From a virus: 64,000 nt of DNA. Shown here in pieces: positions 35,278 to 64,000 of the stretch. The stretch's first letter is position 1; each line of letters begins with the position of its first letter. The DNA lies in IMG/VR virus record IMGVR_UViG_3300021091_000012; one strand, given 5' to 3'. The notes below the pieces were generated by a model, which did no database searches, was not told the origin of the DNA, and saw only the letters and a list, made by a program, of their open reading frames with translations. The position numbers and the translations under genes were made by a program.

Positions 35278-35278
35278 G

Positions 35279-35578
35279 TTACTTGTTAATTTTTGTTATT
35301 ACATCTCGTTCCTGTACCGAGTGATACTCTACACCCTCGTATTCAAATGTTTGTGCGGCAAAGCGTTGATAAAGAATTATATCTCCAGGCTTAACTGTTG
35401 TTTCAATAAACAATCCAGGTGCTGCCCAAAAACCCTTCCCTACATACTGTACTTTTGCTTTAAGTAGTTTTTGTTCACTAATTTCAGGAAGTATAATACC
35501 TCCTTCACTCATTTCGTCTTGCTCTACCGGAAGACAAATCAGCTTATCGCTGATTGGACTAAATAAATTGTTGCTCAT
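35279..35578 (-). CDS. groS: co-chaperonin GroES
   Basis: PISDK, SEGGIILP, VGKG, VKPGD; abuts groEL. Confidence 0.92.
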   Translation of the reverse strand: MSNNLFSPISDKLICLPVEQDEMSEGGIILPEISEQKLLKAKVQYVGKGFWAAPGLFIETTVKPGDIILYQRFAAQTFEYEGVEYHSVQERDVITKINK

Positions 35579-36829: not shown

Positions 36830-39070
36830 TTATTGATGTCCTTCTCCAAAATTATCCGCAATGTTTGGCTCTGCTACTAGTCCAGTTGCTATTTGTACAG
36901 TATTCTCCATACATTCTTTTGTGATAGCACAAGCTCTCTGTGCATGTTCTGCTTTGGCGTTAATCACAAACTCGTCGTGAATCTGCAACATGATACATGC
37001 ATCTAGTCCTTCTTCCTTAAAGCGCTTGTGAATTTGTATTGCTGATCTATTCATAATGGATGCTGCTAGAGATTGTATTTGAAAGTTCTTACAGTTGTTA
37101 AGACCATTCTTGTACTCCATACGAAGCTTCATTAGCTGTTGAGTTTGTTCGGGTGTCTTGGCCATTCGCTTCATTTGAGAAAACGGACCTGGTTCAATAA
37201 GACTGTTCTCAAACTTCTCGTAGATTCTCTTTACTCGATCTAAGTGACGAATACGTCCAGTTTGGTTTTTAACATATCCAAACGTCTGAGCTTTAAGATG
37301 ACTATCGCTCATCCACTTTGCCAATTCAGGGAAACCTTCTAAGTATCCATCGATCATCTTCTGTGCTTCTCTAATCTCGATATTGAGCGATTGACCAATT
37401 TGCCACGCACCTGCTCCATAAGGAATAGCAAGTGCAATACTTTTTGCTCTTTGTCTAAGCTCTGGTCGCAAGTTCTTAACATAGTTGTCATCACTTTTTT
37501 TTGCCGACATGCCTCTAAGCTTAAACGCTTGAATAGCCACTCTACAATATAAATCCTCATTGTTGATAAATACGTTAATCAAATTTGGGTCATTACTTAC
37601 TGATGCGAACACTCGAGGCTCCAAAGACGACTGATCACAGATAATAAACTTTCTACCATCCTCAGCTTTCAAAAAGCTACGAATAATGTTGTTGTATCTA
37701 AGTACTAACTCACTTTGCTCTCCTTCTTCCAACACACGAGGTAGCTGTTGGCAGTCGGAGCTAAAACGACCTGAGGTAGTTCCATGTTGTTTGAAGTACC
37801 AGTAATATCTTCCGTCTTCATTTCCGTCTAGGAAACGATCGACGTATGCAGATTGTATCTTGTTGAGTTTGTTGTAGTCTCTTAGTTTAGCAGCCCAAGC
37901 ATGGTCTTTATGTATATGTTCGATGAAGTCATCGTCAAACTGATCTGTTCCTTTCTTTGTTTGGCTAATAGGCTTTATGCCCATATATTTAAAACACATC
38001 TCAGAAAGCTGTTGCTTACTACTAATATTGATGAATGCACCTTCTTTTTGCTTAAGGAGCTCAAGACTAATAGCAATCTTATCTTGATCATTAAGGTCCT
38101 TATCATCTCCTGTCTGCAAAAACTTCTGTCCAGCAGCTGGATCAATAAGCTGTGGTAGCTTCTCTTCAATTAGCTTTCCGTAATGTCCTCTTTTCTTTGG
38201 AGGATGGTTTGTTAATGCCTTAGCTACAACCCACTGTTGCACTTGACCATTCTTCATTAAGTCCGAAATGATTTCTTGCTCAAGTCTTAGAATATTTGCG
38301 TTGATGTCTTTCTTTGTTTTCTCGATTAGTGGAATATCTAACTCTGTACCGGTCTCTTCCATTTGTATAGTTACCGTCTTGTAGAGTGGCATCACCTCAT
38401 CGTTGAAAAAGAAATCCCACAATCCCTGCTCTTTAAGTACTGGCAGGTAGTATGTCATAACTCGAAGTGTCAAATCGGTATCTGCTGCTGCGTACTCTCC
38501 TAACAAGCTCATATTTGCTTTAAAAATTTCAAAGTTGGTCTTTGTAATACTACCACCATTCCTTTGAATAGACTCTTTTAGTTTTACTTGCTCTTCGTTA
38601 GCTTCTTTCTCAGCATCTAGTCCTAATTCATTTTGAATCTCAATAGCAATGTCTTTCAAACCAAAAGGACCATCCTCTTGTAGAGTATGGCGTAGTAACA
38701 TCGTATCACAATACAGATCATCTCGCAAATCAACACCATAAAAGTTTTTAGTGTACCGGACGTCAAACGAGGCGTTATGCATTACTAGCTTTTTGCCTTT
38801 TAGCATGTTGATAAGTTGGCGTGCAATGTCGTCGCACTTCTTGCCACCAATATAAGAATCTATAAGCGATTGACTATCAACATCCCAATATCTAGTTGGA
38901 AAGTAATAACCTTCTCCAATATCTGCAGAAACAGAAAAACCAATGATCATTCCATTTCTTGGATTAACACTAGTCGTCTCAGTATCGTATGCGATAATGT
39001 TTCCGTTCTTAATATAGTTGGCCAGCTCTACGACACCAGCTTCGTCGGTTATGATTTTATATTTTTTCAT
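36830..39070 (-). CDS. polA: family A DNA polymerase (3'-5' exonuclease plus polymerase)
   Basis: ExoI YDTETT, ExoII HNASFD, ExoIII YAAADT; TTSGRFSS; motif A CDQSSLEPR; motif B RQRAKSIALAIPYG; motif C IHDE. Confidence 0.96.
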   Translation of the reverse strand: MKKYKIITDEAGVVELANYIKNGNIIAYDTETTSVNPRNGMIIGFSVSADIGEGYYFPTRYWDVDSQSLIDSYIGGKKCDDIARQLINMLKGKKLVMHNASFDVRYTKNFYGVDLRDDLYCDTMLLRHTLQEDGPFGLKDIAIEIQNELGLDAEKEANEEQVKLKESIQRNGGSITKTNFEIFKANMSLLGEYAAADTDLTLRVMTYYLPVLKEQGLWDFFFNDEVMPLYKTVTIQMEETGTELDIPLIEKTKKDINANILRLEQEIISDLMKNGQVQQWVVAKALTNHPPKKRGHYGKLIEEKLPQLIDPAAGQKFLQTGDDKDLNDQDKIAISLELLKQKEGAFINISSKQQLSEMCFKYMGIKPISQTKKGTDQFDDDFIEHIHKDHAWAAKLRDYNKLNKIQSAYVDRFLDGNEDGRYYWYFKQHGTTSGRFSSDCQQLPRVLEEGEQSELVLRYNNIIRSFLKAEDGRKFIICDQSSLEPRVFASVSNDPNLINVFINNEDLYCRVAIQAFKLRGMSAKKSDDNYVKNLRPELRQRAKSIALAIPYGAGAWQIGQSLNIEIREAQKMIDGYLEGFPELAKWMSDSHLKAQTFGYVKNQTGRIRHLDRVKRIYEKFENSLIEPGPFSQMKRMAKTPEQTQQLMKLRMEYKNGLNNCKNFQIQSLAASIMNRSAIQIHKRFKEEGLDACIMLQIHDEFVINAKAEHAQRACAITKECMENTVQIATGLVAEPNIADNFGEGHQ

Positions 39071-44961: not shown

Positions 44962-45438
44962 TTATTCTTCATAGATACTTGAGTTTTTATCGTTTTCAAA
45001 ACATTCAACTTTAATGCACTTGCAACGTCCTGCATCTGTTTTAGACAACACGTCGTTGAATTTATCGTACACTAGCTTTGCACAAGACTCTGCTCCCATC
45101 TTCTCCATGAAGTGAACTTTAGCAAGTCCCATCTGGCCTAGCTGTTCAAATATATCTGCATACGGATCATCCTTTTGAATTAGTAAAGTGTGATCCCACA
45201 TATGATCCATCCACGACTTTAAGCCGTTGCCTACTGGAGCATCTTTGAAACCTCCATAGTCCACAATCCAATTCATATCATCTAGTTGATTTTCTTCTAG
45301 TGGTTCGTTGGATGCAAACCAAACTTTAAACTTTAGAGCATATCCGTGTAGCAATTCACAATGTGAGTGTGATGCTTTCCATTGACGGATTGCAACTGAG
45401 TAATTGTCAAATAACTTTGTTGAAATGTATCTACCCAT
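44962..45438 (-). CDS. queD: 6-carboxy-5,6,7,8-tetrahydropterin synthase
   Basis: SHCELLHGY, WIVDYGG, WDHT, GAE, ECFEND. Confidence 0.93.
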   Translation of the reverse strand: MGRYISTKLFDNYSVAIRQWKASHSHCELLHGYALKFKVWFASNEPLEENQLDDMNWIVDYGGFKDAPVGNGLKSWMDHMWDHTLLIQKDDPYADIFEQLGQMGLAKVHFMEKMGAESCAKLVYDKFNDVLSKTDAGRCKCIKVECFENDKNSSIYEE

Positions 45439-48805: not shown

Positions 48806-50662
48806 TTATACTATTTCACATGCACCACCTGCACAAGCTGCTTCTCCTTTAAGGTTGGTAGTGTCATCAAGTTCAACAACTTTACTCAAATCTACGTCCT
48901 TCAAAGAGTCCATCATTCTATTATAAGTATCTTCGTCAATGTCTTCAAATGGTGCTTGAATGTAGGTTCCTCCGTTATATGGTAGTACAGACAAACCGTT
49001 GTAGTGTTCGCGGTTATTCCACATCCACTCACCAGCTAGATCCCACTCATCCTCTTTCAGAGATACTGTAGCTGATACGTTGTGTGAGTTGTTACCCGAC
49101 CTATGTCCTGGTTTAACCCACTCCAAGTGTACTCTCTTGATTCGCTCTAATAAAGCAAAAGGAGATTCTGTACGTAAGATCGCGCCTTCGGGTGCTTTCT
49201 GTGGAATAGAGATTACTGCAGTATCGTGTGGACGGAAGTACTCATCCTCAACAAGCTCAGGGTGATTAATTGATAGGTATGTGTAGATTGCTTCATTCTT
49301 TCCTACTCGGATTCTACGAATGTAGAAATCGTTATGCCAAGCGTGGATACCTGACGAAGTGCCCAATGTAAGTGATGTTGTTCCTGCCGGCTTAACAGTC
49401 GTAGCTCTTGCAGACTTGTTGATACCAATAAGCTCAGCCACTCTAGCATTTTCATCCTTAACAACCTTCGCGGCTGCTTTCATATCATATCCCAACACTG
49501 TACCTGATCCGATACCAGTCATTGAAACTCCAATCAAAGCATCTTTTTCAGTTGTTCTTTTCCACACATCTCTCAAGTAATGGAAATCTGTATAACCTGC
49601 TTGAAGTGTTCCAATGAACGCAGCAGCACGTACTCTACTTTCGAAGTCTTGTTGATCTACAATGTCCGACACATTAACCTCGCAGAGGTTACAGAACTGG
49701 AAAGGTCGTAGTGCAATCTCACAGCATGGATTAGTTCCCCAATCTTTATCGTTTGTTAGGTAGATTCCTGGTTCACCTGCTCCTGATAATTCAACACGCT
49801 TCCAAAGATCCATGAAGAACTCCTTGGTAAGTTTGTGTCTCATTAACACAGCTGAGTTATTTGCTCTACCTCTTTGTGCGTTTTGCTCCCACCAGTTACC
49901 TGACTTACAAGAAATCATCTCCTCATCGTCAGCACTAAACAAGCTAATAAGAGCTGCTCTGCGAATACCACCGGCCAATACTGCATCCGCAATATGACAT
50001 ACCATGTCGTGTACTTCAATTGATGATAGTTTATCTCCATCTTCTTTTGAGTCTAAAATTCCTTGTAATTTTATTAAACATTCTTTTAGTGGCTGAGGAC
50101 CTGGTGCTTTCCCTCCTGACGTCACTAGACGTGCACCTTTTGGTCGAATGTCACTAAAATCAAACTCTAATCGAGATCCTCCAGTGAAGTAAGACTTAAT
50201 ACAATACTTAACTGCATCTGCCCATCCTTCAATAGAGTCCGCTATCAAGTAGCGTCTTTTTCTTTTTGAGACCGGTTTACGGATCTCAGGTAATCTTTCT
50301 ACGTGATGTGTTTGCACTGAGTAACCAACTCCTGTTCCTCCTAACAATAAAAACATAGCTTCGCCAAAAGCACGAACATCGTCGATTGGTAGGTAAGCAC
50401 AGTTGTAAATTCTATTAGGTGAGATCTCGACTGGCTTTCCAGCAAACTGCATACTGCGCATTGAAGGTAAAACCTTCTTACCATACACAAACTGGTAGAC
50501 GTCTTCGATTTCTTTTGCCAATTGTGGATACTTTCGAATGTGCATTTCTTTGTTTCTTATAACTAATTCCTGCCAAGTTTCTCTTCTTTGCAGTTTGGGT
50601 AAGTACTTTGCGTACTTCATAAAGACAGTGATCTCGCTTAGGATTTCATTCGAAAGTGTCAT
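48806..50662 (-). CDS. nrdJ: class II (B12-dependent) ribonucleotide reductase
   Basis: PSMRSMQ, YNCA, GGTGVG, GGIRRAA, TNPCCEI, CNL, TVKPAGT, C-terminal CAGGAC. Confidence 0.92.
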   Translation of the reverse strand: MTLSNEILSEITVFMKYAKYLPKLQRRETWQELVIRNKEMHIRKYPQLAKEIEDVYQFVYGKKVLPSMRSMQFAGKPVEISPNRIYNCAYLPIDDVRAFGEAMFLLLGGTGVGYSVQTHHVERLPEIRKPVSKRKRRYLIADSIEGWADAVKYCIKSYFTGGSRLEFDFSDIRPKGARLVTSGGKAPGPQPLKECLIKLQGILDSKEDGDKLSSIEVHDMVCHIADAVLAGGIRRAALISLFSADDEEMISCKSGNWWEQNAQRGRANNSAVLMRHKLTKEFFMDLWKRVELSGAGEPGIYLTNDKDWGTNPCCEIALRPFQFCNLCEVNVSDIVDQQDFESRVRAAAFIGTLQAGYTDFHYLRDVWKRTTEKDALIGVSMTGIGSGTVLGYDMKAAAKVVKDENARVAELIGINKSARATTVKPAGTTSLTLGTSSGIHAWHNDFYIRRIRVGKNEAIYTYLSINHPELVEDEYFRPHDTAVISIPQKAPEGAILRTESPFALLERIKRVHLEWVKPGHRSGNNSHNVSATVSLKEDEWDLAGEWMWNNREHYNGLSVLPYNGGTYIQAPFEDIDEDTYNRMMDSLKDVDLSKVVELDDTTNLKGEAACAGGACEIV

Positions 50663-50732: not shown

Positions 50733-52103
50733 TTATTTTGTTAAATTTTGTAATTCTGAAAATTTATTTGCAAGTGCTTTTCTTACAACCTCAGAATCAC
50801 TTTGCATCATTGCTTTTGCTTCTTTACCCATTACAGTGCTTTCAGCAAAAATTTCTATCTTTGAAGCCGACATATTCATTCGGCTCGGAAAGGTCAGTCC
50901 ATCCGGACCAAATCGATTCTTAATAACGTGCCATCTACCAGTACCTGCTAACTTATCTGTTACCTTTCTTGATAGTGATACGACAAAATCAGCTACCATC
51001 ACCTTTGAGTATGATTCTGCAATCTTGTCTGCTTCAATGATATCTTCCTCAAGAGCTGATCTATTTGCTTGCGATGCGGTGTAGATTGGTATTTGATATG
51101 TACCAGCCATTCCTCGCAAATCTTCGTAGATGTTTCCTAACATGATATCATTTCGAACAGCACCTTTTGAACTAGTATCTCTTAGCAAGTCTGCGTAGTC
51201 TACTAGTATTAGATCTGGTTGAAATCCTTGCATGATGCATTTATCAAGATGTGCTGACAGCATTGTTACTGTAGCAGCTTTGGTTGGATAGTATTTTATA
51301 ATTAACTTTCCTTTAAGCTTTTTGAGTTTATCCACAACTTCGTCTTGATGAAACTTCAAGTCTTGTGAAGGAATACCTGTATAATGTGAATCGAACCGAG
51401 CACCTACGTAGGTCTCCGAAAGTTCAAGAGTATAGTAAACTACGTTAAGTCCACTTTTAACTGCAGCTGCTGCTATATTAACTAAAGCCATTGACTTACC
51501 AATACCAGCTGGTGCTACAAATACTCCCATCTCACCGCTACCTAAACCACCATCCATGATTTCGTTGATCACATCCCATGGCGTTGGAATTGTATTCCTC
51601 TTATTTTCAACAAATCTTGCACCTATATCATCTACGTATTCGTGACCTATGTTTCGATCGGTCCCAGCCTTCATAGCTTCATCAATAGCAGTCTTAATGT
51701 CATCATACTTTCCTGACTGCAATAACTGAACTGATCGTAAGATAGCTTCTTTGATCTTTTGATTTTTACAGAACTCTAGGGTACGATCTTTAATGAAATC
51801 TAAATCAGTTGATTCAGTATATCTAACTACCTCCTTTAAAGTTTCTATAATAGCCGTTCTTAATACTGGTTCCTTTTCTTCGTCTATGTGTATTTTCAAT
51901 ACCTCCAGTGTTGGTGGAGTTTTGTACTTATCAAAGTACTCTAAAAGAGTTTGAGCTATCCACTGCGATGAGTCTGAGGAGAAGTATTTAGGATCTATGA
52001 TATCATGTATCTGTTGTAAAAAGATTCTATCCTTAATAAGGATTGTAAGCACCTTATTCTGAAACGCTGTTCCGTAAAACTGTAATGTGTCTTGTTCTTG
52101 CAT
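50733..52103 (-). CDS. DnaB/gp41-like replicative helicase
   Basis: APAGIGKS, YTLELS, LVDYADLL, TASQANR, KNRFG. Confidence 0.93.
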   Translation of the reverse strand: MQEQDTLQFYGTAFQNKVLTILIKDRIFLQQIHDIIDPKYFSSDSSQWIAQTLLEYFDKYKTPPTLEVLKIHIDEEKEPVLRTAIIETLKEVVRYTESTDLDFIKDRTLEFCKNQKIKEAILRSVQLLQSGKYDDIKTAIDEAMKAGTDRNIGHEYVDDIGARFVENKRNTIPTPWDVINEIMDGGLGSGEMGVFVAPAGIGKSMALVNIAAAAVKSGLNVVYYTLELSETYVGARFDSHYTGIPSQDLKFHQDEVVDKLKKLKGKLIIKYYPTKAATVTMLSAHLDKCIMQGFQPDLILVDYADLLRDTSSKGAVRNDIMLGNIYEDLRGMAGTYQIPIYTASQANRSALEEDIIEADKIAESYSKVMVADFVVSLSRKVTDKLAGTGRWHVIKNRFGPDGLTFPSRMNMSASKIEIFAESTVMGKEAKAMMQSDSEVVRKALANKFSELQNLTK

Positions 52104-52108
52104 ATTGA

Positions 52109-52140
52109 TTAACTATACTTAATTCATTTTAATCTAGCAA
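52109..52140 (-). promoter_or_regulatory. sigma70-like promoter for the helicase
   Basis: TTG-N20-TATAGTTAA. Confidence 0.55.
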
Positions 52141-53184
52141 GGTATATTGATCTAATTTCTGAGTGACTTCTCTTATCCACACTTCCACGTTCCTGATGGC
52201 GTTTGTCATTCCATCTTCAAAAATCATTTGATGAAACTTTATCTTACTCAGCTTTACGACAGGAGTTTCAAGTGTGGTTATAATTTTAAGTCTTGTGCTT
52301 GTTGGTATTCCGCTTTCAGAAAGTTGCATGATTTGATGAAACAAGCGAATGTTAGATTCTGCTTGAACTACTTTTTCGTATAACTTAACTTTAGGATGCT
52401 CAGCAGCTAGTTCTTTTGCATATTCTATAAAACCATCAACACTCATATACTCTGACCGTGTCAGCTTTGGAAACCTACTTGCTATTGTCTTTACTCCTAA
52501 CCCTGACACTCCTGGAATGTTATCACTATCATCACCTAGCAATGCTCTATAAAGAGCAAAGTTATATGGCATAATACCATACGTCTCATACACATCGGTT
52601 GTATAAAATAACTGCTTTTTGATTGGACTCCAAATATGAATACGGTCATTAACAAGTTGCATAAAATCCTTATCGGAAGACATGATAAACACCTGAGAGT
52701 CTCGCTCTTTGAGGTAGTCTTCTGAGACGTACGCTATCACGTCGTCGGCTTCAACTCCATCAGAAACAACAGTAGTGAAAGGCATTACCTCGATGTACTC
52801 GACAAGCCTCATTAACTGCTCTCGTTGATTATCCTCTTTATCCACAGTTTCAGCTCGATTCAGTCTTATCTTAAATGTACGATTAGCTTTATACTCAGGA
52901 AAGAGTTTTTTGCGCTTTGCCGATCCATCCTTACCATCAAACACAATAATAACCCTTGTAGGGTTGATTGCCTTGATTGCATGCCCAACGCTTAATAGAA
53001 ATCCAGAAATACCGCCTACATGCTCTCCATTAGTATTTGTAGTAGGACTTGCTGCATAAGCTCTAATAAAGGTGTTGAGGCCGTCAACAATTAACACTCG
53101 AGAATTCTTCGTGTCTTGTTGACTAGCCCCTTCGCCCCTGAGTTTTACCTCATTAAAGTATGCTAGATACTTTTTGTTGATCAT
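52129..53184 (-). CDS. 5'-3' exonuclease/flap endonuclease (T4 RNase H-like)
   Basis: IVDGLN, VFDG, YKANR, EADDVI, SSDKDFMQL, GDDSDNIPGV.G.G.KT. Confidence 0.93.
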   Translation of the reverse strand: MINKKYLAYFNEVKLRGEGASQQDTKNSRVLIVDGLNTFIRAYAASPTTNTNGEHVGGISGFLLSVGHAIKAINPTRVIIVFDGKDGSAKRKKLFPEYKANRTFKIRLNRAETVDKEDNQREQLMRLVEYIEVMPFTTVVSDGVEADDVIAYVSEDYLKERDSQVFIMSSDKDFMQLVNDRIHIWSPIKKQLFYTTDVYETYGIMPYNFALYRALLGDDSDNIPGVSGLGVKTIASRFPKLTRSEYMSVDGFIEYAKELAAEHPKVKLYEKVVQAESNIRLFHQIMQLSESGIPTSTRLKIITTLETPVVKLSKIKFHQMIFEDGMTNAIRNVEVWIREVTQKLDQYTLLD

Positions 53185-53188
53185 AACC

Positions 53189-54334
53189 TTAATCTTCTAA
53201 CTCTCCTTCATCTACCAATATTTCATCCGGATCAACTAAGTTTTGATCTCGATATTTCATAACATAGATGTCGCAGATTTTCTTGTAACAATAATTCTTC
53301 AACTCCTCATCTTGCTCGAGCATTCCTCTCCAATCTTTTGACTGGAACTTAATCTCTTCACCAGTCTCCTCGTTCACCATTGCGTACCAAGCTCCTGAGC
53401 CTTTAATCGTTCCGTAGTCTTTCATAAGAGTCAGCCAGCTATTATAGTCATCAATTCCTGAATTGAAATAAATGTCAAAGGTTGCTTTCTTGAATGGAGG
53501 ACCCATCCGGTTCTTGATAATCTGAGCTTCTGTCTGTACTCCGATAATCTGTTCAGTCTTTCCTGATCCGCTTTTCAATTTACCCACTCCCTTCAATCGA
53601 ATTCGGCAGCTTGCATGAAATCCTAGAGCCTTACCTCCGGAAGTAGTGTATTTATCTCCAAACATCACACCCATTTTTTCACGTAACTGAGATGTACAAA
53701 GTAAAAGTACTCGCTGCTTTCCAATAATATTCGTAATCTTACGCATTGCTTTTGACATTAGGATAGCCTTAGAAGTGGCCCATCCATCCTTCTCGTAGTC
53801 TGCGTCTTGTTCAATCTTAGTTGTTGCTGCCGATACTGAATCAAGTGCAATTGTAACTAGTCTATTTTTACTACTCTTACGAACGGTCTCAATAATGTTT
53901 TCAATAGCATCAAACGAATCCTCTATTGTTTCTAGTGGAACGTATAGCATATTACTAACATCAACACCTACTGCTCTCAAGAACTCCTCACTTAATGCAT
54001 TTTCAGTATCAATATAAACTGCAAGTCCACCTTTTTTCTGAGTATTAGCTAGTGTGTGTGCTACAATTAAACTCTTACCAGATGCTTCCATTCCTTGGAG
54101 TTCAACAATTCGACCTACTGGGAATCCTCCGTTCGGTCGATTTGAGATAGCCAAGTCTAACAAAGATGATCCAGTTGATACCCATTCGGTTAAATCTGTT
54201 GGAGTATCCTCTTCACCATTTAAAAAGTGAGCTGCTTTGAAGTCTTTGAATTTCTTATTTAGACTGTCCGCTAACATTGAAGCGAGCTCGTCCCTTCCCG
54301 AAATCTCATCGGGCGTCTTCGTCGACTTTGCCAT
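53189..54334 (-). CDS. recA: RecA/UvsX recombinase
   Basis: STGSSLLD, GRIVEL.GMEASGKS, YIDTE, LDSV, TSGGKALGFHAS.R, KNR. Confidence 0.95.
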   Translation of the reverse strand: MAKSTKTPDEISGRDELASMLADSLNKKFKDFKAAHFLNGEEDTPTDLTEWVSTGSSLLDLAISNRPNGGFPVGRIVELQGMEASGKSLIVAHTLANTQKKGGLAVYIDTENALSEEFLRAVGVDVSNMLYVPLETIEDSFDAIENIIETVRKSSKNRLVTIALDSVSAATTKIEQDADYEKDGWATSKAILMSKAMRKITNIIGKQRVLLLCTSQLREKMGVMFGDKYTTSGGKALGFHASCRIRLKGVGKLKSGSGKTEQIIGVQTEAQIIKNRMGPPFKKATFDIYFNSGIDDYNSWLTLMKDYGTIKGSGAWYAMVNEETGEEIKFQSKDWRGMLEQDEELKNYCYKKICDIYVMKYRDQNLVDPDEILVDEGELED

Positions 54335-55220: not shown

Positions 55221-55601
55221 TTATCGCGACAGCTCTTGTATTTTTATTAACCTGCAGTTAAATTCTGAATCTGACAATAAAAGCGTATCTTGGTAGTTAC
55301 TCCAATCAACCCTAAAAGTCTTATCCAGAACTCCATTGTTAAGGGATTGTATTAAGCTGTTGAGAGCATTAATACTATAAAACGTATTTGTTTCTTTTTT
55401 TCTATTAATAGAGATTGTATCTTTCATTCTTCTACCATCACCAGATACATTGTAAATGCACACTACATTACTGGGTGTCTCAGTGTATGAATAACACTTC
55501 ATGTTAGATATATTATCTGTTGTGTAGGTTTTATAAACTTCACCTATACATAAGGCTAATTTGTCTAAATAAGTAAATGTGCATAGTAGCTGTGGCTTCA
55601 T
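55221..55601 (-). CDS. conserved phage hypothetical protein
   Basis: QLLCTF, RKKETNTFYSINALN. Confidence 0.75.
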   Translation of the reverse strand: MKPQLLCTFTYLDKLALCIGEVYKTYTTDNISNMKCYSYTETPSNVVCIYNVSGDGRRMKDTISINRKKETNTFYSINALNSLIQSLNNGVLDKTFRVDWSNYQDTLLLSDSEFNCRLIKIQELSR

Positions 55602-55870: not shown

Positions 55871-57175
55871 TTAACAAAGTTTCATTTCTGAGTAATTTGA
55901 TCCCTTCTTTAACTTTACTGGGAATTTATCCAGGTCTATGTTTTGCGGAATTACCTCTTGCAATAGATAATCTAACTCATTAGACGGTACATCAAATAAT
56001 ATACTATCGTATGTGTATAATATTGGGACAGCTTTTTTTGTTTGTAAACAATCCAAGATAGGTTGTAGCGTAATCACATTAAATTCAGTTTCATACATCT
56101 GCAAAAAATAATTGAAAAGAGTGTATAAACTTATATCTTGATAGTTTGCTATCATAAGTTTTCTACCTGATATGGGGCTTTCAACGTATCCATACTGCGT
56201 AGCATAAGACCATAGCTGCTCTGCTAAATCTTTTGCTGCTTTGAAAAAAGGCACATGCAGATATTGCTTACTAATACCTCCATATATTTGTCTAAACGTA
56301 GATTCTTTTGCTTGTATGATTTGAGTTTTTGTAGGTGCTGGTGTGTTGTGGTAATGCTTTGCTAGATGTTCGTATACATCTTCCTTTCCAAAATCATAAC
56401 CCATTAAAGATGCAATAAGTCTAGGGTGGTAGGAGTTAAAATCTAATTCTACTAAACAACCATCATCAAATCTACTAACAAAGCAATCTCGTGAACCATC
56501 ATCCTTATTGAGAGCTGCAAAGTTGATTCCACCAAACCTATTACTAGGTCGGCCTGTAGTTGTGTAGTAATTATATTGTGTGTAGCTTTTGGTATTATTG
56601 ACCGAAAACGACTGACCAAAAGCTTTAGTAAAATAGTCTATGTTAATTTGCAATCCATTTTTTTCTATGTTGTAGAATAAGGAAAGAAGTTGGTTTTGAT
56701 AAAAATCCAGACCGGGCTGCTTGTCTGCTAGATAAATTCTCTGAAACAGCTCATAGGCAATATGCTCATGCTTAGGTAAACTGACTAACGATCCAAGAAC
56801 ACTACAATCTGATATATATCGAGCATAGTGGTTAAGTATTCCTGGTGTTTCAAAATTACACGGTTGATTAAGTTTCAAATAATACTGCAACTGAGCATCT
56901 ACAAAATTAGATGTATCATAACCTGCATACTTTAGTAATATGGTATCATAGCTGTATACGTTGCATTTATATAAAAAGTTAAAGTTATTAACTTTGAAAA
57001 CACCATCTGGATGTGTCCTGCTTATAGAATAAGTTTTGTGTGTATTAACATCGACCATAACTAACGCTACAACCTCACTCACTACTCGATGTCTACGACT
57101 ATCTTGCAATACTGGATAAACGAATAAAGTTTTTCCAGACAAAGACTCAAGTTGATGTATGTTATCTATAACCAT
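55871..57175 (-). CDS. divergent, compact family A polymerase-like protein
   Basis: TTTGRPSN; motif A LDFNSYHPR; motif B AKESTFRQIYGG; NYFLQ; motif C YTYDSILFD; N-domain lacks clear exonuclease acidic residues. Confidence 0.85.
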   Translation of the reverse strand: MVIDNIHQLESLSGKTLFVYPVLQDSRRHRVVSEVVALVMVDVNTHKTYSISRTHPDGVFKVNNFNFLYKCNVYSYDTILLKYAGYDTSNFVDAQLQYYLKLNQPCNFETPGILNHYARYISDCSVLGSLVSLPKHEHIAYELFQRIYLADKQPGLDFYQNQLLSLFYNIEKNGLQINIDYFTKAFGQSFSVNNTKSYTQYNYYTTTGRPSNRFGGINFAALNKDDGSRDCFVSRFDDGCLVELDFNSYHPRLIASLMGYDFGKEDVYEHLAKHYHNTPAPTKTQIIQAKESTFRQIYGGISKQYLHVPFFKAAKDLAEQLWSYATQYGYVESPISGRKLMIANYQDISLYTLFNYFLQMYETEFNVITLQPILDCLQTKKAVPILYTYDSILFDVPSNELDYLLQEVIPQNIDLDKFPVKLKKGSNYSEMKLC

Positions 57176-57204
57176 ACATCTAATATACAAAATTTATTTA
57201 GATT

Positions 57205-57885
57205 TTAAAGCCCATTAAATCCAGCAAATCGACCAAACTCTGTAAAACTTTTAACTGCAAACAATATGCCAGGAATTTTTGCTTGAGCTTTGAACAACGC
57301 TAGTTCGTTTTGTTGGGCTATGTAGTCGTAAGGTCCAACTAGTTTCCATGTTACTTTTGCATAAGAATATATCAATGGGTCTATTCCTGTAACCTGACCT
57401 ATCAACTCCCACTGACTACCATCTATTTCAATTGGATAGCTTTCGATTGTGTTTCGTTTTTCAACAAAATACCTTTCATCTTCTCCAACATCAAATGCTG
57501 CATCCTTAGGTTTGTAATTATACAATCTTGGTTCTGAGTATTGAAGTTGTTTGATTTCAAACTTTTTAATAAACTCATAATCGTATTGACTTTTGATAGG
57601 ATATACTCTTCGTAGTACTTTGTTTGTATTGTAAAATTTTTCTGAGTAAATTTTTTGTCCTGTTATAATAGTGGGATCTCCAATGGTATTAATGTTATCT
57701 TGTGGCTTGAGTGGTGTTGGACCAGTCCAAGCTAATCCGTCCTTTAAATGGTACTCTCCTATATAATCCTTACCATCTAAAGTAAATTCACCACCTTTTG
57801 TGTACTTATGTGTTTGTGTCCTGCTTCGTGGTGAATAACCACTTATGCTACCTTTACGATTCTTTTTTTTTAACCTCTTACCCAT
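57205..57885 (-). CDS. hypothetical protein (tail/baseplate region)
   Basis: YTKGGEF...YIGEYH; TAATG-coupled to the upstream structural gene. Confidence 0.7.
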   Translation of the reverse strand: MGKRLKKKNRKGSISGYSPRSRTQTHKYTKGGEFTLDGKDYIGEYHLKDGLAWTGPTPLKPQDNINTIGDPTIITGQKIYSEKFYNTNKVLRRVYPIKSQYDYEFIKKFEIKQLQYSEPRLYNYKPKDAAFDVGEDERYFVEKRNTIESYPIEIDGSQWELIGQVTGIDPLIYSYAKVTWKLVGPYDYIAQQNELALFKAQAKIPGILFAVKSFTEFGRFAGFNGL

Positions 57886-59813
57886 TACTGCGATTTTTTA
57901 TATCGTGCCACTGTATTTACAGATGTTGACCAGTCTTGAGCTGTAACACTATGCTCTACCGCTGTGATTTGAAAATCAAAACTATTTGCAACAGACGATG
58001 GTATTCTGTCCGAGGAAATTATTTGCCCAAACGCAAAGCCACCTATACCATCTACAGTGAAACCGAAATCAAAAGGCAACGGCAATCCTTTACATTTGTC
58101 TTCCTCAACACCATTTACTGCCTCGGTAATAGCTGTGATTGCTGCTGCTGTGGTTGAATTATCCACAACACCATACATTTCTTCAAAGATTTCATCCATA
58201 CTTTTTTCTTCACTTTCCACTGACGATGGTGCTTCCTTACATTTACATGGAGGCGGAGTCTCAGCTTTGGGCCTGCAAGCATCTGTGACAGATGCACCAG
58301 TGCCAAAAGCCCTAAATGGTATTCCCTTACATTTAGTACCCTTTCCTACTCCTTTTGCTCCGTTTGCATATAGAGCTTGGGATTTCATTGCTCCAGTCAG
58401 TTTCATGTCTAGTTTGAGGTCGCGAATTACTGAGTTGTTGGCGAGACTCGGAACCTTAAAGGTCGATCCGGGTTCATACTTTCTAACATCAATTAGCGAT
58501 ATGGTTGGTACACTGTTTGGATTCTCGCAGTCTTCTGTTGTTGATACAATCTCAAGCATTCCGTCCCAATAACCTCCACACGCATTATTTACTTTTTTAA
58601 GTACGTTTCTTAAAAATGTACTTATCTTATTATCACCATCCTCTACAGCCTTAAGCTCTACCATTAAAAATATACAATTCAATAGAATAGAACTTCCGAA
58701 TTCAATCTCAGTCGCATCCCACATTGATCCTGGATCGTTTTGATCCCATACAAAATCACCTTCACTAATAGCTGCTTCTAATCTTGGAGATCCTGGAATA
58801 ATACATATCCGCGGATCACCTGACTCTAGGTCGGGGTGCGATGGTACATACACATCAGTACTCATTACCCTTCCAATTGTATATTTTCCACCATTAGATG
58901 GTATAGAAAGTGTGTTTATTGCTGCTTCCAACGCACTCCACGAAACATAACCTTCATGCGCATCGTAGTTTGGATTCATAGAACTTTGGCTTGACCCACC
59001 ATCCTGGTTTCGGTCTTCTCCTTCATAACTTGCAGCTGAAACAATAATATCTCTTTCGCTTCCTCCTGACACTTGACCTCCTAAATATACGCAATCCTCT
59101 TCAGCTTGTGCTTGTGAATTTATATCAAATAACCAAGTATATAGTAAACTTCTTTTTGCTGTTACTTCTTCACCTTCATTGTCTTCAAACACCCGAGCAC
59201 AGTTGCAATCTCCTGTCACAGCAACCTCACGATCACCTACAGACTCAGTAGCAGCTACAATTTCTATACTACAATCCCAATAACCATCATTAGCAAGTTT
59301 ATATCCAAAATTAGTTACTAACCCTTGTAGCCCATCCATACATGGAAAACTTGCTGCCCGTTTTTGAATCAAACATATAGCCTTACCATCATCCATTGGG
59401 CCAGTTACCGGTGACGGTGCAGTTGCTCCAGTGGCCGATACTGACCAACCAAACTGAACTCGAACAGTCATTCCTGATATAAAGTAGCACTTTTGTAACT
59501 CTACAAGCTGACTATCAGTAAATGCTCTCAGGCTCACTGTGGCTGATCTTGTGGTTCCTAATTCCCCTTGTTTTTTGACTTGAACTTCTGTGATTACAGG
59601 CTTTGTTCGCACAAAACCAGCTTCATATCTTGGGTCCGTGAGCTTACTAGATAGTTGTGAGTATTCTCCACAACTACTAGCAAAAGCACTCAAATGCACC
59701 CATGGGAAGCGTTTTGCTGCCCATTCAGCTCCCTTATTTGTACTTCTCGCTTGAAGTTCTGCTGATACAGTTCCTGGAACGTTTTTAGCTCCGAATGGGT
59801 TCTCGCCAGCCAT
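57885..59813 (-). CDS. putative baseplate hub/tail protein
   Basis: Position after the LysM-like gene; C-terminal GIGGFAFG...FQITAVEHSV...WST pattern of hub-like proteins. Confidence 0.6.
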   Translation of the reverse strand: MAGENPFGAKNVPGTVSAELQARSTNKGAEWAAKRFPWVHLSAFASSCGEYSQLSSKLTDPRYEAGFVRTKPVITEVQVKKQGELGTTRSATVSLRAFTDSQLVELQKCYFISGMTVRVQFGWSVSATGATAPSPVTGPMDDGKAICLIQKRAASFPCMDGLQGLVTNFGYKLANDGYWDCSIEIVAATESVGDREVAVTGDCNCARVFEDNEGEEVTAKRSLLYTWLFDINSQAQAEEDCVYLGGQVSGGSERDIIVSAASYEGEDRNQDGGSSQSSMNPNYDAHEGYVSWSALEAAINTLSIPSNGGKYTIGRVMSTDVYVPSHPDLESGDPRICIIPGSPRLEAAISEGDFVWDQNDPGSMWDATEIEFGSSILLNCIFLMVELKAVEDGDNKISTFLRNVLKKVNNACGGYWDGMLEIVSTTEDCENPNSVPTISLIDVRKYEPGSTFKVPSLANNSVIRDLKLDMKLTGAMKSQALYANGAKGVGKGTKCKGIPFRAFGTGASVTDACRPKAETPPPCKCKEAPSSVESEEKSMDEIFEEMYGVVDNSTTAAAITAITEAVNGVEEDKCKGLPLPFDFGFTVDGIGGFAFGQIISSDRIPSSVANSFDFQITAVEHSVTAQDWSTSVNTVARYKKSQ

Positions 59814-59816
59814 AAC

Positions 59817-60113
59817 TTATTCATTTAATAGTTGATACTCTGATAAAATGTTAGAATAATCCTGAGGTATTCTAAGTAGTGTTCCTGGAGGGATGGCAAA
59901 GGTACCCTTACCAATTCCATTTGCTTCTGCTATTAGCCACCATAAACTAACATCCCCATAGTATTGATGTGCTATTAGTTCGACGCGGTCTTGCGGAGCA
60001 GTTCTAATGTAAATATCAGATTCTTTTCTTGGAATAGGTGGATAAAGTACTGACCTAATAACTCGTTTTCCGTCTTCTGACTTTTTTTGTGGTATGTTTT
60101 CGTATCTATTCAT
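59817..60113 (-). CDS. LysM/tail-X-like baseplate protein
   Basis: DRVELIAHQYYGDVSLWWLIAEAN...PGTLLRIP. Confidence 0.8.
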   Translation of the reverse strand: MNRYENIPQKKSEDGKRVIRSVLYPPIPRKESDIYIRTAPQDRVELIAHQYYGDVSLWWLIAEANGIGKGTFAIPPGTLLRIPQDYSNILSEYQLLNE

Positions 60114-60126
60114 ATTTTACTTTATA

Positions 60127-60134
60127 TATAAATA
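60127..60134 (-). promoter_or_regulatory. TATTTATA motif (putative late promoter)
   Basis: 13 nt upstream of the baseplate gene ATG. Confidence 0.6.
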
Positions 60135-60192
60135 CTACATTAGTGTTCCAATCAAACTTTTGTGGTAGCACTGGTTATATTTGCGACCGTTA

Positions 60193-62103
60193 TTATCCGT
60201 AATAAGTATTTGACTTTGCATTGAATAGCTGCCCTTTGTTATCTGTTAGCATTGCAAGGTCTAACGATATATCTGCTATCATTGGGTGTCCTGAGAGATC
60301 CCAGGTATACTCTGCTGGATTAGTATCTATCTTAAGCGATGTACATACGCATGTTACGTTCCTAAACAAGCCACCAACTGTTAGTTTTACTATTGGACCT
60401 TTTACATAATTTCCAGCTGGCTCACCTACTGCGGTTACCTTAATAAGCTTATCAAGTTTTGTCCACATACCTTGTGCTCCTCCACTCCAAGCTACAACCT
60501 TAAATCCCATACTAACACTTCTGGTTACTCCTTTAAAGTTTTTAAACGTATCTTGACGACCTATAAAGTTTTGATCGCTCCAACTTGGACTCCAGCTATC
60601 GCTCAATGATGTGAGTAATGCTGGAAAGGTAACACCACTGATTTTTAGTTCGATAAAATCTCTTCCAATATTATAGTGTGGTGTTGGCGGTTGTCCTGAT
60701 TCTCTAAAGCTACCAGCACGCCTAATTCTACCCGTTGTTGGTGACGGTCTTGTGTTTCCGGAAACCCCAGTACCTTGTCGTCTACCTGCTCTCTGGTATT
60801 GAAAACTCTGAATACTTCTTAGTAACTCTTCTGTAGTTGGAAACCGTGTTGCTGGTGGTTGGTTTTGTTGAAAGTAATTTTCACCTTGCACTGTCTCCAA
60901 CTTCTGACCATCAAAATTTTTATTCTGAAAGTTCTTTATTGGTAAAATTTGACTGCTTTCAGTACCTTCTGGACTAATTCCTTGCAATCCTTGAATAAAC
61001 TGTACAAAGCTATTGTCACCAAAATTAGTGCGCTGAATGTTGATTGTGCCGTGGTTAAATATTATTTGACCAAAGTCTGGTCTCTGTAAAAATACAGTGC
61101 CGTGCTTAACTCTTGGTAGTAATATTGATAATGAACGATCACTAAAATATTGTGCTTTATTTGGTTCTTGAGTTGGCTTTGATACGATTCCTGGTAATGT
61201 TATGGTTGTAATGCTGACAGCGGTACCTGCGTTGTTAATTAATACCCCCTGCATTAGGGTTATTACGTTTGAAGACTTAGCTGCAAATGCCTTTTGTCCA
61301 CCTTGAGCAACTACTTCAACTGCATCTTCTATATTTGTTTGTGATATAAACTCCCCGTTTCTAAAAAACGTTCCTTGTAGTGTGAGTATAATTGACTGTC
61401 CTGTTGCCTCTTGAGTTTGCGTTTGAGATATGAACGCTCCGTTTGTAAAAAATGTTCCTTGTAATGTTAGGACGTTTTGTGTTGGAGTCTTGGGGTCAAT
61501 TAAAGATATAAATTGACCATTTGTTAGTTTTACACCATGAAATATGATTGGATCAAAATTGTAAGGCAGTATATTTTGACCGTCCCGATTTGAATTAGTT
61601 ATAAACTTATTAACTTTTGTTATAGAGGTATGATTAAATATCCCAAATTTGGTTATTGTAATGTAGTCTGTATAAAAGTCGGATAAGAAAAAATGAGGTA
61701 AGTGTCTAGTTGACTTTGCAATATTTGGTTGTGCTAATCTATTTTCAAGATTTATAACTGATGCAAAGTTTTCATTAGGCTTGGGTAATAAAAACGATAC
61801 CAACGGCTTTGTTGCAAACGCACTTGGTTCTATTAGTTTTTGGTTTGATCGAGGCCCTCTAATTATTTTGAGAATTTCTATATTACGTTTTACCTGATCT
61901 TGAAGCTTTTTTAGTTCAACTATCTGAGGCGGTGGGGTTGGTGTTGATAGTTTTAATTCTTCGGCTTGAGCTGCTTTTGGTGGATGCGGCAAATCTGTTC
62001 CACTTGGAGCTCCTGGTACTGCCTTTCCTTTGAGCTCTGATACCTCGTCGTATGTGCTAGCTTTAAGTCTATCAACCAAACTTATAGTTTTGAATGGCTT
62101 CAT
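60193..62103 (-). CDS. putative tail/baseplate protein (tube-initiator-like C-terminus)
   Basis: C-terminal FPALLTSLSDSWSPSW...IGR...RSVSMGFKV...LTVG; follows the tape measure gene. Confidence 0.6.
   Translation of the reverse strand: MKPFKTISLVDRLKASTYDEVSELKGKAVPGAPSGTDLPHPPKAAQAEELKLSTPTPPPQIVELKKLQDQVKRNIEILKIIRGPRSNQKLIEPSAFATKPLVSFLLPKPNENFASVINLENRLAQPNIAKSTRHLPHFFLSDFYTDYITITKFGIFNHTSITKVNKFITNSNRDGQNILPYNFDPIIFHGVKLTNGQFISLIDPKTPTQNVLTLQGTFFTNGAFISQTQTQEATGQSIILTLQGTFFRNGEFISQTNIEDAVEVVAQGGQKAFAAKSSNVITLMQGVLINNAGTAVSITTITLPGIVSKPTQEPNKAQYFSDRSLSILLPRVKHGTVFLQRPDFGQIIFNHGTINIQRTNFGDNSFVQFIQGLQGISPEGTESSQILPIKNFQNKNFDGQKLETVQGENYFQQNQPPATRFPTTEELLRSIQSFQYQRAGRRQGTGVSGNTRPSPTTGRIRRAGSFRESGQPPTPHYNIGRDFIELKISGVTFPALLTSLSDSWSPSWSDQNFIGRQDTFKNFKGVTRSVSMGFKVVAWSGGAQGMWTKLDKLIKVTAVGEPAGNYVKGPIVKLTVGGLFRNVTCVCTSLKIDTNPAEYTWDLSGHPMIADISLDLAMLTDNKGQLFNAKSNTYYG
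61337..61470. repeat. imperfect tandem repeat with 84-nt period inside the CDS
   Basis: LTLQGTFFTNGAFISQT / LTLQGTFFRNGEFISQT. Confidence 0.7.
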
Positions 62104-62104
62104 G

Positions 62105-64000
62105 CTATCTCACATTTGATGTATTCATTCCCAGACGAAGCACTTCGCCAACTTTTTTGCCATCCAGCTTAACTTCACCACCCGATGAAGCAACTGCAAT
62201 GAGTGCATCTAACCTTTCTACAACCTTGTCTATCTTTTCGCTTTGTTCTCTCTCTACACTACTACCACCACCTAAATCATAGCTAATAGATTCACCTAGT
62301 GCTATCAATATTGGTGCTACCAACGATAGTGCAATCAATCCTGCTATTGTTGGTAGTGTAAATAAACCTGCTGTAGCAAATGCTATAAGTCCAGCTCCCA
62401 TTGCACTAAAGGCTGCCGCTAGTTCCCAGAACATTGGAGCCATTGATGCTAGTGCAATTAGTACTTCAACGTGAGGAGTTGCCAACATACCAGCTGCTGC
62501 TACCACTGCCAAACCTGCCCCTAGTACAATTAATGCGGCGCCTCCTAATAAGATGCCAGGAGCTGCAATAAGTGATGAGACTCCTAATGAGATCATTCCA
62601 AGCCCAAGTACTACTAAGCTAGCTCCAAGTACTACTAGATCTAGTGCCATTGGCACCAACTCTACTAGGGTTGGTACAAATAATGCAAACCCTTTTGCAA
62701 TTTCTTGAATAGCTAATCCTAATACATATAAAGCTGCAGCCATGATTAGCATAGCAGCTGCTCCTGCCAGAATAGCTAACGCTCCAACTCCACTCATCAT
62801 AATCAGACCAATCAACGCTAAGGCACCCACTAAGGCTAGCATTGCTACAATTGCTTTACCAATAGCTCCCCACGATACAGACATAAACTCTTGCGCTGCT
62901 TTTGCAAATACAAACACGGCTGCTGCCACTAGTACCAATGCCGCCGCTCCGGCAAGTAGTTTTCCTGGATTGATCTTCTCGATTGCTTTTGTCAATCCAC
63001 CCGTACTTTTACCTGCACCTGCTGGAACTTTTGAGGCAGCTCCTGCTGCTCCTGACATAGCCTCTGCTCCTTTGGAAGCTGCTCCTGCTGCTGCTCCAGC
63101 AACACCTCCTCCCATTCCTAATGCTGATTGTGCTTTTTTCCATAGCATGTGAGCTTTTTCAGCAGCCCACTGAGCTTTTTCTTTAATCCACAATCCCATC
63201 TTAGTTTGACCTAGTGTATTTTCTAGAAACAAACGAGCTTGCGTTATTCCAAGTCCAACTAACGCTAATGCATTTTTACCCTGCTCTATTACAAAGTCTT
63301 TAATGTTTGCAAGTAGTTTTGAGTTCATTAAAGTGTTAATAAAGGCTAACACTCCTTTATATGCCATTGCTAATCCATTTTGCAGTTTTTGCAGTATTCC
63401 AAATTGAGACATGAACTGAATCGATGTCATCAACAACATACCATTCTCCTTGAAGAAACCAACAGCAGCACCGCCGTACTGCATCATATAGCCCATTGCA
63501 TTCATTGCTAGGCTGGATCCTTCTCCAAAATACTTGTTTTGTTCTTCTTGAGCATCAATAGATTTAGCCAACTCCTCTACTGTCATTCCAGCGGCTTCGG
63601 CCAATGCTTTCTTTTGAAGAACATTCATCTTATCAAACTCAGCAGAACCTCCTATGTTTTTAAGAACCTCTGCTGTTGATCCCTCAAGATCACCATTCAA
63701 AGCTAACTCACGTGCTTTGTCTAGGTTTATTTCTTTACCCAGTAATACAGATGCTTCCATCTGCTTGTTGATACTATTTTCAAAATCCAATAAACCATCA
63801 GCCATCTTAGCAGCAGTAGCAATCTCGACTCCCATCTTGTGAAGAGCAATTGCTGATTTACCAAAAGCCTCAGCACCGCCTTTACTATATAGTGCCATGG
63901 CTCCTGAGTTCTTGGCCATATCCTTCATTATCTTGCCTGGGGCGATTCCTTGCATTTTTGCCATGGCGCCTACATGCTCCATAGCGTTTGCAGCTGATTC
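62105..64000 (-). CDS. tail tape measure protein (5'-truncated)
   Basis: Long helical Ala/Gly/Leu-rich repeats; SINKQMEASVLLGKEINLDKARELAL; ends VKLDGKKVG; frame stays open past 63982. Confidence 0.85.
   Translation of the reverse strand, partial: ESAANAMEHVGAMAKMQGIAPGKIMKDMAKNSGAMALYSKGGAEAFGKSAIALHKMGVEIATAAKMADGLLDFENSINKQMEASVLLGKEINLDKARELALNGDLEGSTAEVLKNIGGSAEFDKMNVLQKKALAEAAGMTVEELAKSIDAQEEQNKYFGEGSSLAMNAMGYMMQYGGAAVGFFKENGMLLMTSIQFMSQFGILQKLQNGLAMAYKGVLAFINTLMNSKLLANIKDFVIEQGKNALALVGLGITQARLFLENTLGQTKMGLWIKEKAQWAAEKAHMLWKKAQSALGMGGGVAGAAAGAASKGAEAMSGAAGAASKVPAGAGKSTGGLTKAIEKINPGKLLAGAAALVLVAAAVFVFAKAAQEFMSVSWGAIGKAIVAMLALVGALALIGLIMMSGVGALAILAGAAAMLIMAAALYVLGLAIQEIAKGFALFVPTLVELVPMALDLVVLGASLVVLGLGMISLGVSSLIAAPGILLGGAALIVLGAGLAVVAAAGMLATPHVEVLIALASMAPMFWELAAAFSAMGAGLIAFATAGLFTLPTIAGLIALSLVAPILIALGESISYDLGGGSSVEREQSEKIDKVVERLDALIAVASSGGEVKLDGKKVGEVLRLGMNTSNVR

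Follow-up and report, generated by a model that had tools for sequence, protein, structure and literature searches.

The IMG/VR virus record IMGVR_UViG_3300021091_000012 provides a stretch of 64,000 nucleotides—here called the window, 64 kb of a phage sequence of ~165 kb—that carries two genes for family-A polymerases: a canonical, proofreading PolA and a compact protein of 434 amino acids, the subject of this report. The compact protein is called divPolA1 here, after the family named by Yutin et al. (2024; Virol J 21:200, PMC11348598), the prototype of which is gene 1 of vB_FspM_immuto, a Flavobacterium phage (hereafter immuto). The open reading frame (ORF) of divPolA1 extends on the minus strand over 55871..57190 from an in-frame TTG, which would add five codons; the ATG at 57175 is favoured as the start because homologs of 433–437 amino acids align from there, and the homolog search returned a 100% match of 434 amino acids (P0002). 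The gene, its domains and motifs, and other genes of the window are listed in Table 1.

Table 1. Positions in the 64-kb window of the divPolA1 gene, its parts and other genes discussed in the text.
Feature	Position	Strand	Remarks
divPolA1 gene	55871..57175	minus	434 amino acids plus stop; ATG at 57175
3′–5′ exonuclease-like (DEDD/RNase H-like) domain, residues 1–155	56711..57175	minus	degenerate active site
Thumb remnant and TGRPSN hairpin	56540..56710	minus	from profile alignment to Klenow and from the model
TGRPSN	56540–56557	minus	from the translation
Motif A, DFNSYHPR	56420..56443	minus	D245 catalytic; Y249 = I709; H250 = E710, the steric gate
Motif B (O-helix), KESTFRQIYG	56279..56308	minus	K290, F294, Y298 and G299 retained
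Helix-Q motif, NYFLQMYE	56090..56113	minus	N355/Q359 = N845/Q849, minor-groove readers
Motif C, YDS	56003..56011	minus	Y389-D390-S391 = Klenow H881-D882-E883; D390 catalytic, small residue in place of the third carboxylate
Four large ORFs (tail genes)	57205–63982	minus	upstream of divPolA1
orf126	55221..55601	minus	conserved, no family; follows divPolA1 and precedes the SSB gene; immuto gene 2 is a homolog
[quoted passage not shown]
RecA-type recombinase	53189..54334	minus	PF00154, 2e-56
5′–3′ exonuclease/flap endonuclease (FEN)	52129..53184	minus	PF02739, 7e-36; PF01367
DnaB-type replicative helicase	50733..52103	minus	PF03796, 2.5e-15
Ribonucleotide reductase (RNR)	48806–50662	minus	follows DnaB
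orf454	46301–47665	minus	454 amino acids; beyond the RNR gene
QueD	44962–45438	minus	
QueE	43883–44659	minus	
Divergent DpdA-like protein	40595–41419	minus	27% identity to immuto DpdA
Canonical proofreading PolA	36830..39070	minus	YDTET; DQSSLEPR (steric-gate Glu); RQRAK...Y; HDE
GroEL and GroES homolog	33634–35578	minus	GroEL of 547 amino acids, Cpn60 1.7e-73

Against the Pfam DNA_pol_A model (PF00476) divPolA1 scores 17.2 bits, below the cut-off of 34.3, so that its place in the superfamily rests on a profile-to-PDB match and on the fold; some relatives do pass that cut-off (P0220 at 37.9 bits). PHROG 17 (‘DNA polymerase’) matches the protein at 1e-11, a phmmer search of the PDB with the single sequence gave no match, and a profile of 149 homologs (alignment A1, 27–89% identity, the source of all conservation counts below) reaches the Klenow fragment at E 4e-12. 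The profile pairs R209 of divPolA1 with R668 of Klenow, D245 with D705, K290 with K758, F294 with F762 and Y298 with Y766, sets I286, four residues upstream of K290, at R754, and puts E362 at the position of A852; the remaining equivalences are given with the motifs in Table 1. From the canonical set of family A (a Glu gate, RxxxK and HDE) the protein departs by Glu to His, Arg to Ile/Tyr and HDE to YDS, while the catalytic Asp, Lys and Tyr residues are retained. On these motifs divPolA1 is a derived, non-canonical member of the family-A fold, and translation and profile agree with an earlier reading of this DNA made from its letters alone (the sequence-only reading), which had described a 434-residue family-A polymerase with motifs DFNSYHPR and YDS, both catalytic Asp residues and the motif-B Lys and Tyr.

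An AlphaFold2 model of divPolA1 was built from the alignment (predicted local distance difference test score, pLDDT, 96.8; predicted template modelling score, pTM, 0.93). Its best Foldseek matches (E 1e-19 to 1e-17) were Klenow, M. smegmatis Pol1, Bst and Pol nu, and VIA-align placed ten PolA DNA polymerases at Z 21–24 with ~400 of 434 residues aligned, including Pol1, Pol nu, DpoZ, Klenow (~Z 23) and Aquifex Pol1 as well as the G20c polymerase, the apicoplast polymerase, Taq, T7 DNA polymerase and Pol theta. Residues 1–175 match DEDD exonucleases (ExnV1, RNase D and WRN exonuclease) at Z 8–9; the exonuclease fold is complete and its site degenerate. The acidic residues of this site had been described as missing, which is true of ExoI (P21/L23) and not of the ExoII position, where D77 of this protein is still Asp (Asp in 73 sequences of the family, Asn in 52). 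In the profile alignment, Klenow chain residues 236–307, ~72 residues of the thumb, have no counterpart in divPolA1: only 35 residues lie between G174 (in IEKNG) and R209, and the model shows a single short helix there, at 179–186. The sequence-only reading made no mention of the thumb. As modelled, divPolA1 is a compacted Klenow fragment with the thumb nearly absent, and it is not RNA polymerase-like.

The model bears on the idea that divPolA1 might be a T7-like, transcriptional, single-subunit RNA polymerase (RNAP). T7 RNAP has HDS as its motif C, with Ser after the Asp as in divPolA1, and the likeness to T7 RNAP that had been put forward turns on this single Ser. The fold is far nearer to the DNA polymerases: VIA-align gave Z 11.8 for yeast mitochondrial RNAP, 10.7 for T7 RNAP (253 residues), 9.7 for human mitochondrial RNAP and 7.6–7.7 for N4 vRNAP, that is, Z ~8–12 in alignments spanning ~255 residues of divPolA1, against Z 21–24 over ~400 for the DNA polymerases. 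There is no N-terminal promoter-binding domain, the N-terminal domain being an exonuclease fold, and the RxxxK Arg common to T7 RNAP and the TV-Pols is absent (Iyer et al., 2008, PMC2579912). We counted in favour of this idea that Yutin et al. consider an RNAP role for another divergent family, divPolA2 (PMC11348598).

Six residues—R209, N218, D245, K290, E362 and D390—are invariant in 149/149 sequences, and several others are nearly so: Y389 and Q359 (148 each), H250 and Y298 (147 each), F294 (144) and N355 (at least 95%). Position 391 is Ser in 124 sequences, Ala in 23 and Gly in two; the I709 position is aromatic (Tyr or Phe) in 144. The check on H/YDS conservation that had been proposed thus returned His in 147, Tyr in 148 and Ser in 124 sequences, and the reported absence of an R754 equivalent extends from I286 of divPolA1 to nearly all homologs, in which position 286 is Tyr, Ile, Val or Leu and in only five cases Arg. 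Variable catalytic Asp residues, named beforehand as the sign of an inactive relic, were not found; because the catalytic residues are invariant across 149 diverse sequences, the relic reading is excluded, and taken as a pair, T7-like RNAP or relic, these readings are highly improbable.

The family itself is large: a word-indexed search yielded 2,104 divPolA1 relatives, and an exhaustive search gave 984 clusters (50% identity), nearly all of 400–480 amino acids, of which 520 fall below 1e-30; relatives are encoded on at least 587 IMG/VR stretches. Since it is conserved across so large and divergent a family, the altered nucleotide pocket is a selected state of the whole family, above chance. 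One relative of 935 amino acids (P0223; L091 2680–5487, Logan DRR438526) has an N-terminal domain of ~485 residues fused in frame to a complete divPolA1. By eye, this N-terminal part contains polymerase-like strings resembling motifs A and C (FDIVAAQPSLL and VHDSIYV), and hhalign gave it no match to the divPolA1 profile, nor did Pfam or PHROGs return a family; it stands on a single 6-kb contig and was not used.

A bulky, planar side chain always occupies the steric-gate position: residue 250 is His in 147 sequences and Phe and Tyr in one each, and the two sequences without His are exactly those in which Y298, the Y766 equivalent, is changed to Phe. In families B and Y and in reverse transcriptases, Tyr or Phe serves as the gate. 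For Klenow, Y766 is reported to keep E710 in place beneath the incoming nucleotide's sugar (Astatke et al., 1998, cited in PMC10201439). From the covariation, H250 and Y298 would seem to make the same sugar-pocket floor as E710 and Y766. Because position 250 is always bulky and co-varies with Y298, the evidence leans toward a gate that is retained, and perhaps tighter. Loss of the Glu had been equated with loss of the gate; the one does not in itself show the other, and what we see at position 250 fits retention, so that an altered sugar specificity seems somewhat less likely than a retained gate. The equivalents of R754, E710 and E883 are replaced jointly, and an invariant Glu stands at the A852 position of helix Q; our proposal is that E362, with the small residue at position 391, would be the relocated third carboxylate.

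The setting of the gene is as constant as its pocket residues. In 80/80 IMG/VR loci the order, where the contig reaches, is tail genes, divPolA1, a variable insert and then orf126–SSB–RecA–FEN–DnaB–RNR, and divPolA1 gene order matches in immuto and in Microcystis phage Mel-JY01. The canonical PolA announced earlier for the window is there with all its standard motifs. To call divPolA1 its paralog was right in that there is a second polymerase and loose in the choice of term: BLASTP gives no significant similarity between the two (best E 2.2), and they are therefore not recent paralogs. The large relatives G001 and G002 carry a regular PolA, the complete genomes G004 and G005 a PolB in its place, and all four retain divPolA1; no Pol III alpha subunit was found in five large relatives.

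On this evidence, the reading that we prefer, with a probability of about 60%, is that divPolA1 is an active, DNA-templated, primer-extending family-A DNA polymerase, without proofreading and nearly without a thumb, that plays an auxiliary part. Judging from the motifs, two-metal catalysis would proceed through D245 and D390, and E362 on helix Q probably stands in for the third carboxylate lost in the change from E883 to Ser, Ala or Gly. K290, F294 and Y298 would hold the incoming nucleotide, R209, N355 and Q359 would read the minor groove of the primer–template, and H250, packed on Y298, would replace the Glu as the sugar-pocket floor. With neither thumb nor exonuclease, synthesis is expected to be distributive and error-prone, which is why we would class the enzyme as auxiliary and not as the replicase. 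As to its role, divPolA1 heads the block orf126–SSB–RecA–FEN–DnaB and stays in place while the main polymerase exchanges between PolA and PolB, and this gene order points to short-patch synthesis at lagging-strand or recombination intermediates. Candidate tasks are the extension of DnaG primers or of 3′ ends that invade a duplex, or the filling of gaps in company with the separate FEN, and divPolA1 and FEN may together represent a split Pol I-like task. The sequence-only reading had proposed a non-replicative polymerase with altered sugar specificity; what survives of this is a second polymerase that is catalytically intact by its residues, without proofreading, distinct from the main replicase and changed in its pocket residues, and what finds no support here is the part concerning RNA and primers.

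Several points weigh against an auxiliary DNA polymerase. Primases of the archaeo-eukaryotic type, such as PrimPol, do without a thumb. In Klenow the incoming nucleotide is contacted by R754, E710 and E883, and because these three have changed together, substrate handling may differ. Both the E362-for-E883 swap and the H250–Y298 contact come from alignment and covariation (n = 2), not from coordinates, and the specific role—gap filling, or extension of primers or D-loops—is drawn from gene order only. Our literature search found no biochemistry on any divPolA1 member. A truncated thumb is also common to the CcPol primases (Rice, 2023, PMC10061031), and Yutin et al. stress that it is divPolA1, not the regular polymerase, that stands in the conserved replication context (PMC11348598).

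That last point leads to the view that divPolA1 is the true replicase, the exchangeable PolA or PolB serving repair or some other task. It would agree with the position of divPolA1 in the conserved replication block and of the regular DNA polymerase among chaperonin and nucleotide-modification genes (PMC11348598), and in the window the canonical PolA does adjoin GroES/GroEL. We nevertheless regard it as improbable: lack of thumb and exonuclease predicts low processivity and fidelity, a poor fit to a genome of ~160 kb; no DnaQ-type proofreader acting in trans was seen, the nuclease beside the immuto primase being PD-(D/E)XK/Cas4-like; and every complete genome tested retains a full proofreading PolA or PolB. 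The GroEL and GroES genes lie ~1.3 kb downstream of the canonical PolA, beside it as in immuto, an association reported for the neighbourhoods of ‘regular’ DNA polymerases in divPolA1 phages.

A rival that we hold to be possible, though unlikely, makes divPolA1 a primase-polymerase or a sugar-relaxed enzyme of the CcPol-MP kind, perhaps working with the gp32-like SSB or another small partner. CcPol-MP, a PolA in which the thumb is shortened and the exonuclease domain only partial, primes when a small single-stranded DNA-binding protein is bound to it (PMC7581432, PMC10061031, PMC10201439); divPolA1 is likewise thumb-truncated and shares its gene block with an SSB and a helicase, and all three residues that grip the deoxynucleotide in Klenow are replaced in it. 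If the rebuilt pocket (a His/Tyr sugar floor, no R754 and a carboxylate on helix Q) accepted ribonucleotides or started chains de novo, divPolA1 would represent a new functional class and, with the gp32-like SSB, a second, DnaG-independent system for priming or primer extension; this we consider doubtful. A gate that appears retained, with position 250 bulky and co-varying with Y298, speaks against priming, as do the invariant or nearly invariant residues for the primer terminus and minor groove (R209, N355 and Q359) and the loss of R754, which should weaken nucleotide binding where de novo initiation needs it to be strong. The two genes directly downstream do not encode oligonucleotide/oligosaccharide-binding (OB) folds.

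The distribution of DnaG also bears on priming. It had been argued that no primase is visible in this DNA, and for the 64-kb window that is so: tblastn with the immuto primase gave no match and no DnaG homolog is present. As a premise about the genome, the argument is an artefact of the window, since a DnaG-type primase occurs in 7/7 complete or near-complete divPolA1 genomes, with the consequence that no priming function is missing. These seven, which speak for the present phage by way of its relatives, are immuto, whose annotated primase of the DnaG type lies at 104.4 kb and has zinc ribbon, DNAG_N and Toprim domains, the five large IMG/VR relatives, each with a homolog of the immuto primase (E 6e-60 to 4e-80), and Mel-JY01 (E 9e-61). 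Three relative fragments in which the primase was absent are only 28–37% complete and thus uninformative. In immuto, G002 and G004 the primase gene is found 40–56 kb upstream of that for divPolA1, and in G002 and G004 both are on one strand; by analogy it would fall beyond the end of the window in this phage, and the negative result is what synteny predicts. In immuto a PD-(D/E)XK/Cas4-like nuclease gene directly follows the DnaG-type primase (L003 44447–46151), far from the helicase/SSB block, so the replication genes of the lineage are split over at least three genome regions.

Among the conserved neighbours is orf126, which is present in 71/80 related loci, always directly upstream of the gp32-like SSB gene. 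Over 48 sequences its mean column identity is 49%, with L5, C7, F9, K68, Y75, N78, N81, G90 and W100 invariant. It belongs to no Pfam or PHROG family, and Foldseek (E ≤ 0.001) and the ESM Atlas returned nothing and no usable match, respectively; in its model (pLDDT 91) the first half is ferredoxin/ACT-like, and here VIA-align gave only generic matches, at Z ≤ 7.1 over residues 1–65. The protein may be an unrecognised accessory factor of replication or recombination. Downstream of divPolA1, orf77 encodes a short protein without a family match, and the nearest SSB, the gp32-like one, is three genes away.

On its other side divPolA1 stands at the junction of the tail and replication modules, with only 29 nt between it and the gene before. 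Upstream, the four large ORFs are tail genes: the 625-residue product matches the immuto tape-measure protein, the 636-residue product the next hypothetical protein of immuto, and the 642-residue product the C-terminus of a ‘carboxypeptidase’. Judged by its RNR-II insertion domain, the RNR that follows DnaB resembles the B12-dependent enzymes of class II; immuto has class I NrdA/NrdF at the same position, a swap of RNR class within conserved synteny. Homologs of orf454 are found directly downstream of divPolA1 in ~19 related loci (L025, L026, L043 and L063 at +1319); orf454 has no Pfam or PHROG family, and its ESM Atlas matches are only unnamed viral clusters. The octamer TATTTATA, a candidate late promoter, was not enriched in the window (10 found against 6.9 expected), and a sigma-70 scan around the divPolA1 gene gave chance-level results.

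The window also holds genes for QueD, QueE and a DpdA-like protein (Table 1; 40.6–45.4 kb), and in immuto G is fully replaced by fdPreQ1 (bioRxiv 10.1101/2023.04.13.536721), which together raise the thought of a polymerase specialised for modified DNA, whether for 7-deazaguanine nucleotides or for bypass of lesions and modified templates. We give this little credence. The changed residues line the sugar and triphosphate site rather than the major-groove side on which 7-substituents lie, and the dpd genes are 11–16 kb from divPolA1, beside the regular PolA and without adjacency. Window-type DpdA was found in 2/5 large relatives and a strong QueE match in 2/5, counts that make weak evidence because the types of DpdA diverge from one another and even known ones escaped the Pfam TGT model: PF01702 had no match in the relatives, even where window-type DpdA is present, and is uninformative here. 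Tblastn with immuto proteins found no homolog of QueC, QueF, FolE or DpdN in the window, which indicates a QueC-less 7-deazaguanine pathway different from the fdPreQ1 route of immuto. The replicase, modified-DNA and RNAP readings are each less likely than a primase-polymerase.

As a core gene of an abundant aquatic myovirus lineage, seen on at least 587 IMG/VR contigs and with Flavobacterium and Microcystis among its hosts, divPolA1 matters beyond this one phage. Yutin et al. (PMC11348598) make no mention of the steric gate, of ribonucleotides, of the missing R754 and E883 or of E362 as an invariant residue, and our literature search found no later paper mentioning divPolA1. New here are the family-wide rewired pocket, with three contact residues changed and an invariant Glu, the His/Tyr covariation, a far larger family and the co-occurrence of a conventional primase. 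Were divPolA1 to prime, or to tolerate ribonucleotides or 2′-modified nucleotides, biotechnology might find in it a natural scaffold of compact size (50 kDa), and if it primes, a third A-family primase would be on record; as a plain deoxynucleotide-dependent gap filler, it would show to what extent a Pol I-type enzyme can be minimised.

Compared with known systems, divPolA1 has in common with Klenow the overall fold (exonuclease-like domain, palm and fingers), the Asp pair, K758/F762/Y766, R668 and N845/Q849. It differs in being ~170 residues shorter, with the thumb nearly absent and exonuclease acids lost, and in the changes of E710 to His, R754 to a hydrophobic residue, H881 to Tyr and E883 to Ser, together with the new invariant Glu on helix Q. 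With the T7-like RNAPs it shares the core of palm and fingers, and unlike them it has neither the promoter-binding N-terminal domain nor the RxxxK Arg, and it carries His at the gate. T7 RNAP has Gly where divPolA1 has this bulky His.

The TV-Pols resemble divPolA1 as minimal PolA-like polymerases of viruses and mobile elements and are predicted prim-pols (Iyer et al., 2008, PMC2579912). They have a coiled-coil thumb, a conserved RxxxK, no exonuclease-like domain and a link to D5-type helicases (PMC2579912), whereas in divPolA1 thumb and Arg are missing, an exonuclease-like domain is present and the linked helicase is DnaB. The CcPol-MP/PolA-SSB primases of SCCmec and other mobile elements of the Bacillota (Bebel et al., 2020, PMC7581432; Rice, 2023, PMC10061031) are alike in belonging to family A, in the shortened thumb and crippled exonuclease domain and in the placing of the polymerase gene in one block with a single-stranded DNA-binding protein and a helicase. 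CcPols retain part of the exonuclease fold and bind, on this truncated N-terminal region, a small OB-fold protein encoded immediately downstream; the exonuclease fold of divPolA1 is whole, its neighbours orf77 (short, without a family match) and orf126 (ferredoxin-like) are not OB folds, its SSB is gp32-like and DnaG co-exists in its relatives. CcPol-MP, moreover, sits on integrative elements and divPolA1 in a large myovirus of lytic type.

The closest system is the published family itself. Yutin et al. list 14 phage genomes with divPolA1, in which the catalytic palm residues are conserved, the thumb truncated and the exonuclease inactivated, with a conserved replication block downstream; these genomes also encode a ‘regular’ DNA polymerase (family A, B or C), and the authors conclude that divPolA1 probably retains polymerase activity and participates in replication (PMC11348598). 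The window protein displays each of the features of that family: homology, a catalytic palm, a truncated thumb, a degenerate exonuclease fold, and a second DNA polymerase and replication block in the same genome. Immuto phages are its nearest cultured relatives; their canonical PolA is 46% identical to that of the window, and tblastn finds immuto divPolA1 at 28.2% identity over residues 34–432 (91% of the protein; E 5e-39). In size, truncated thumb, dead exonuclease domain, place before SSB–RecA–FEN–DnaB and co-occurrence with a regular DNA polymerase the two are alike, with no essential difference, and by homology the window protein is a new, divergent member of the published divPolA1 family.

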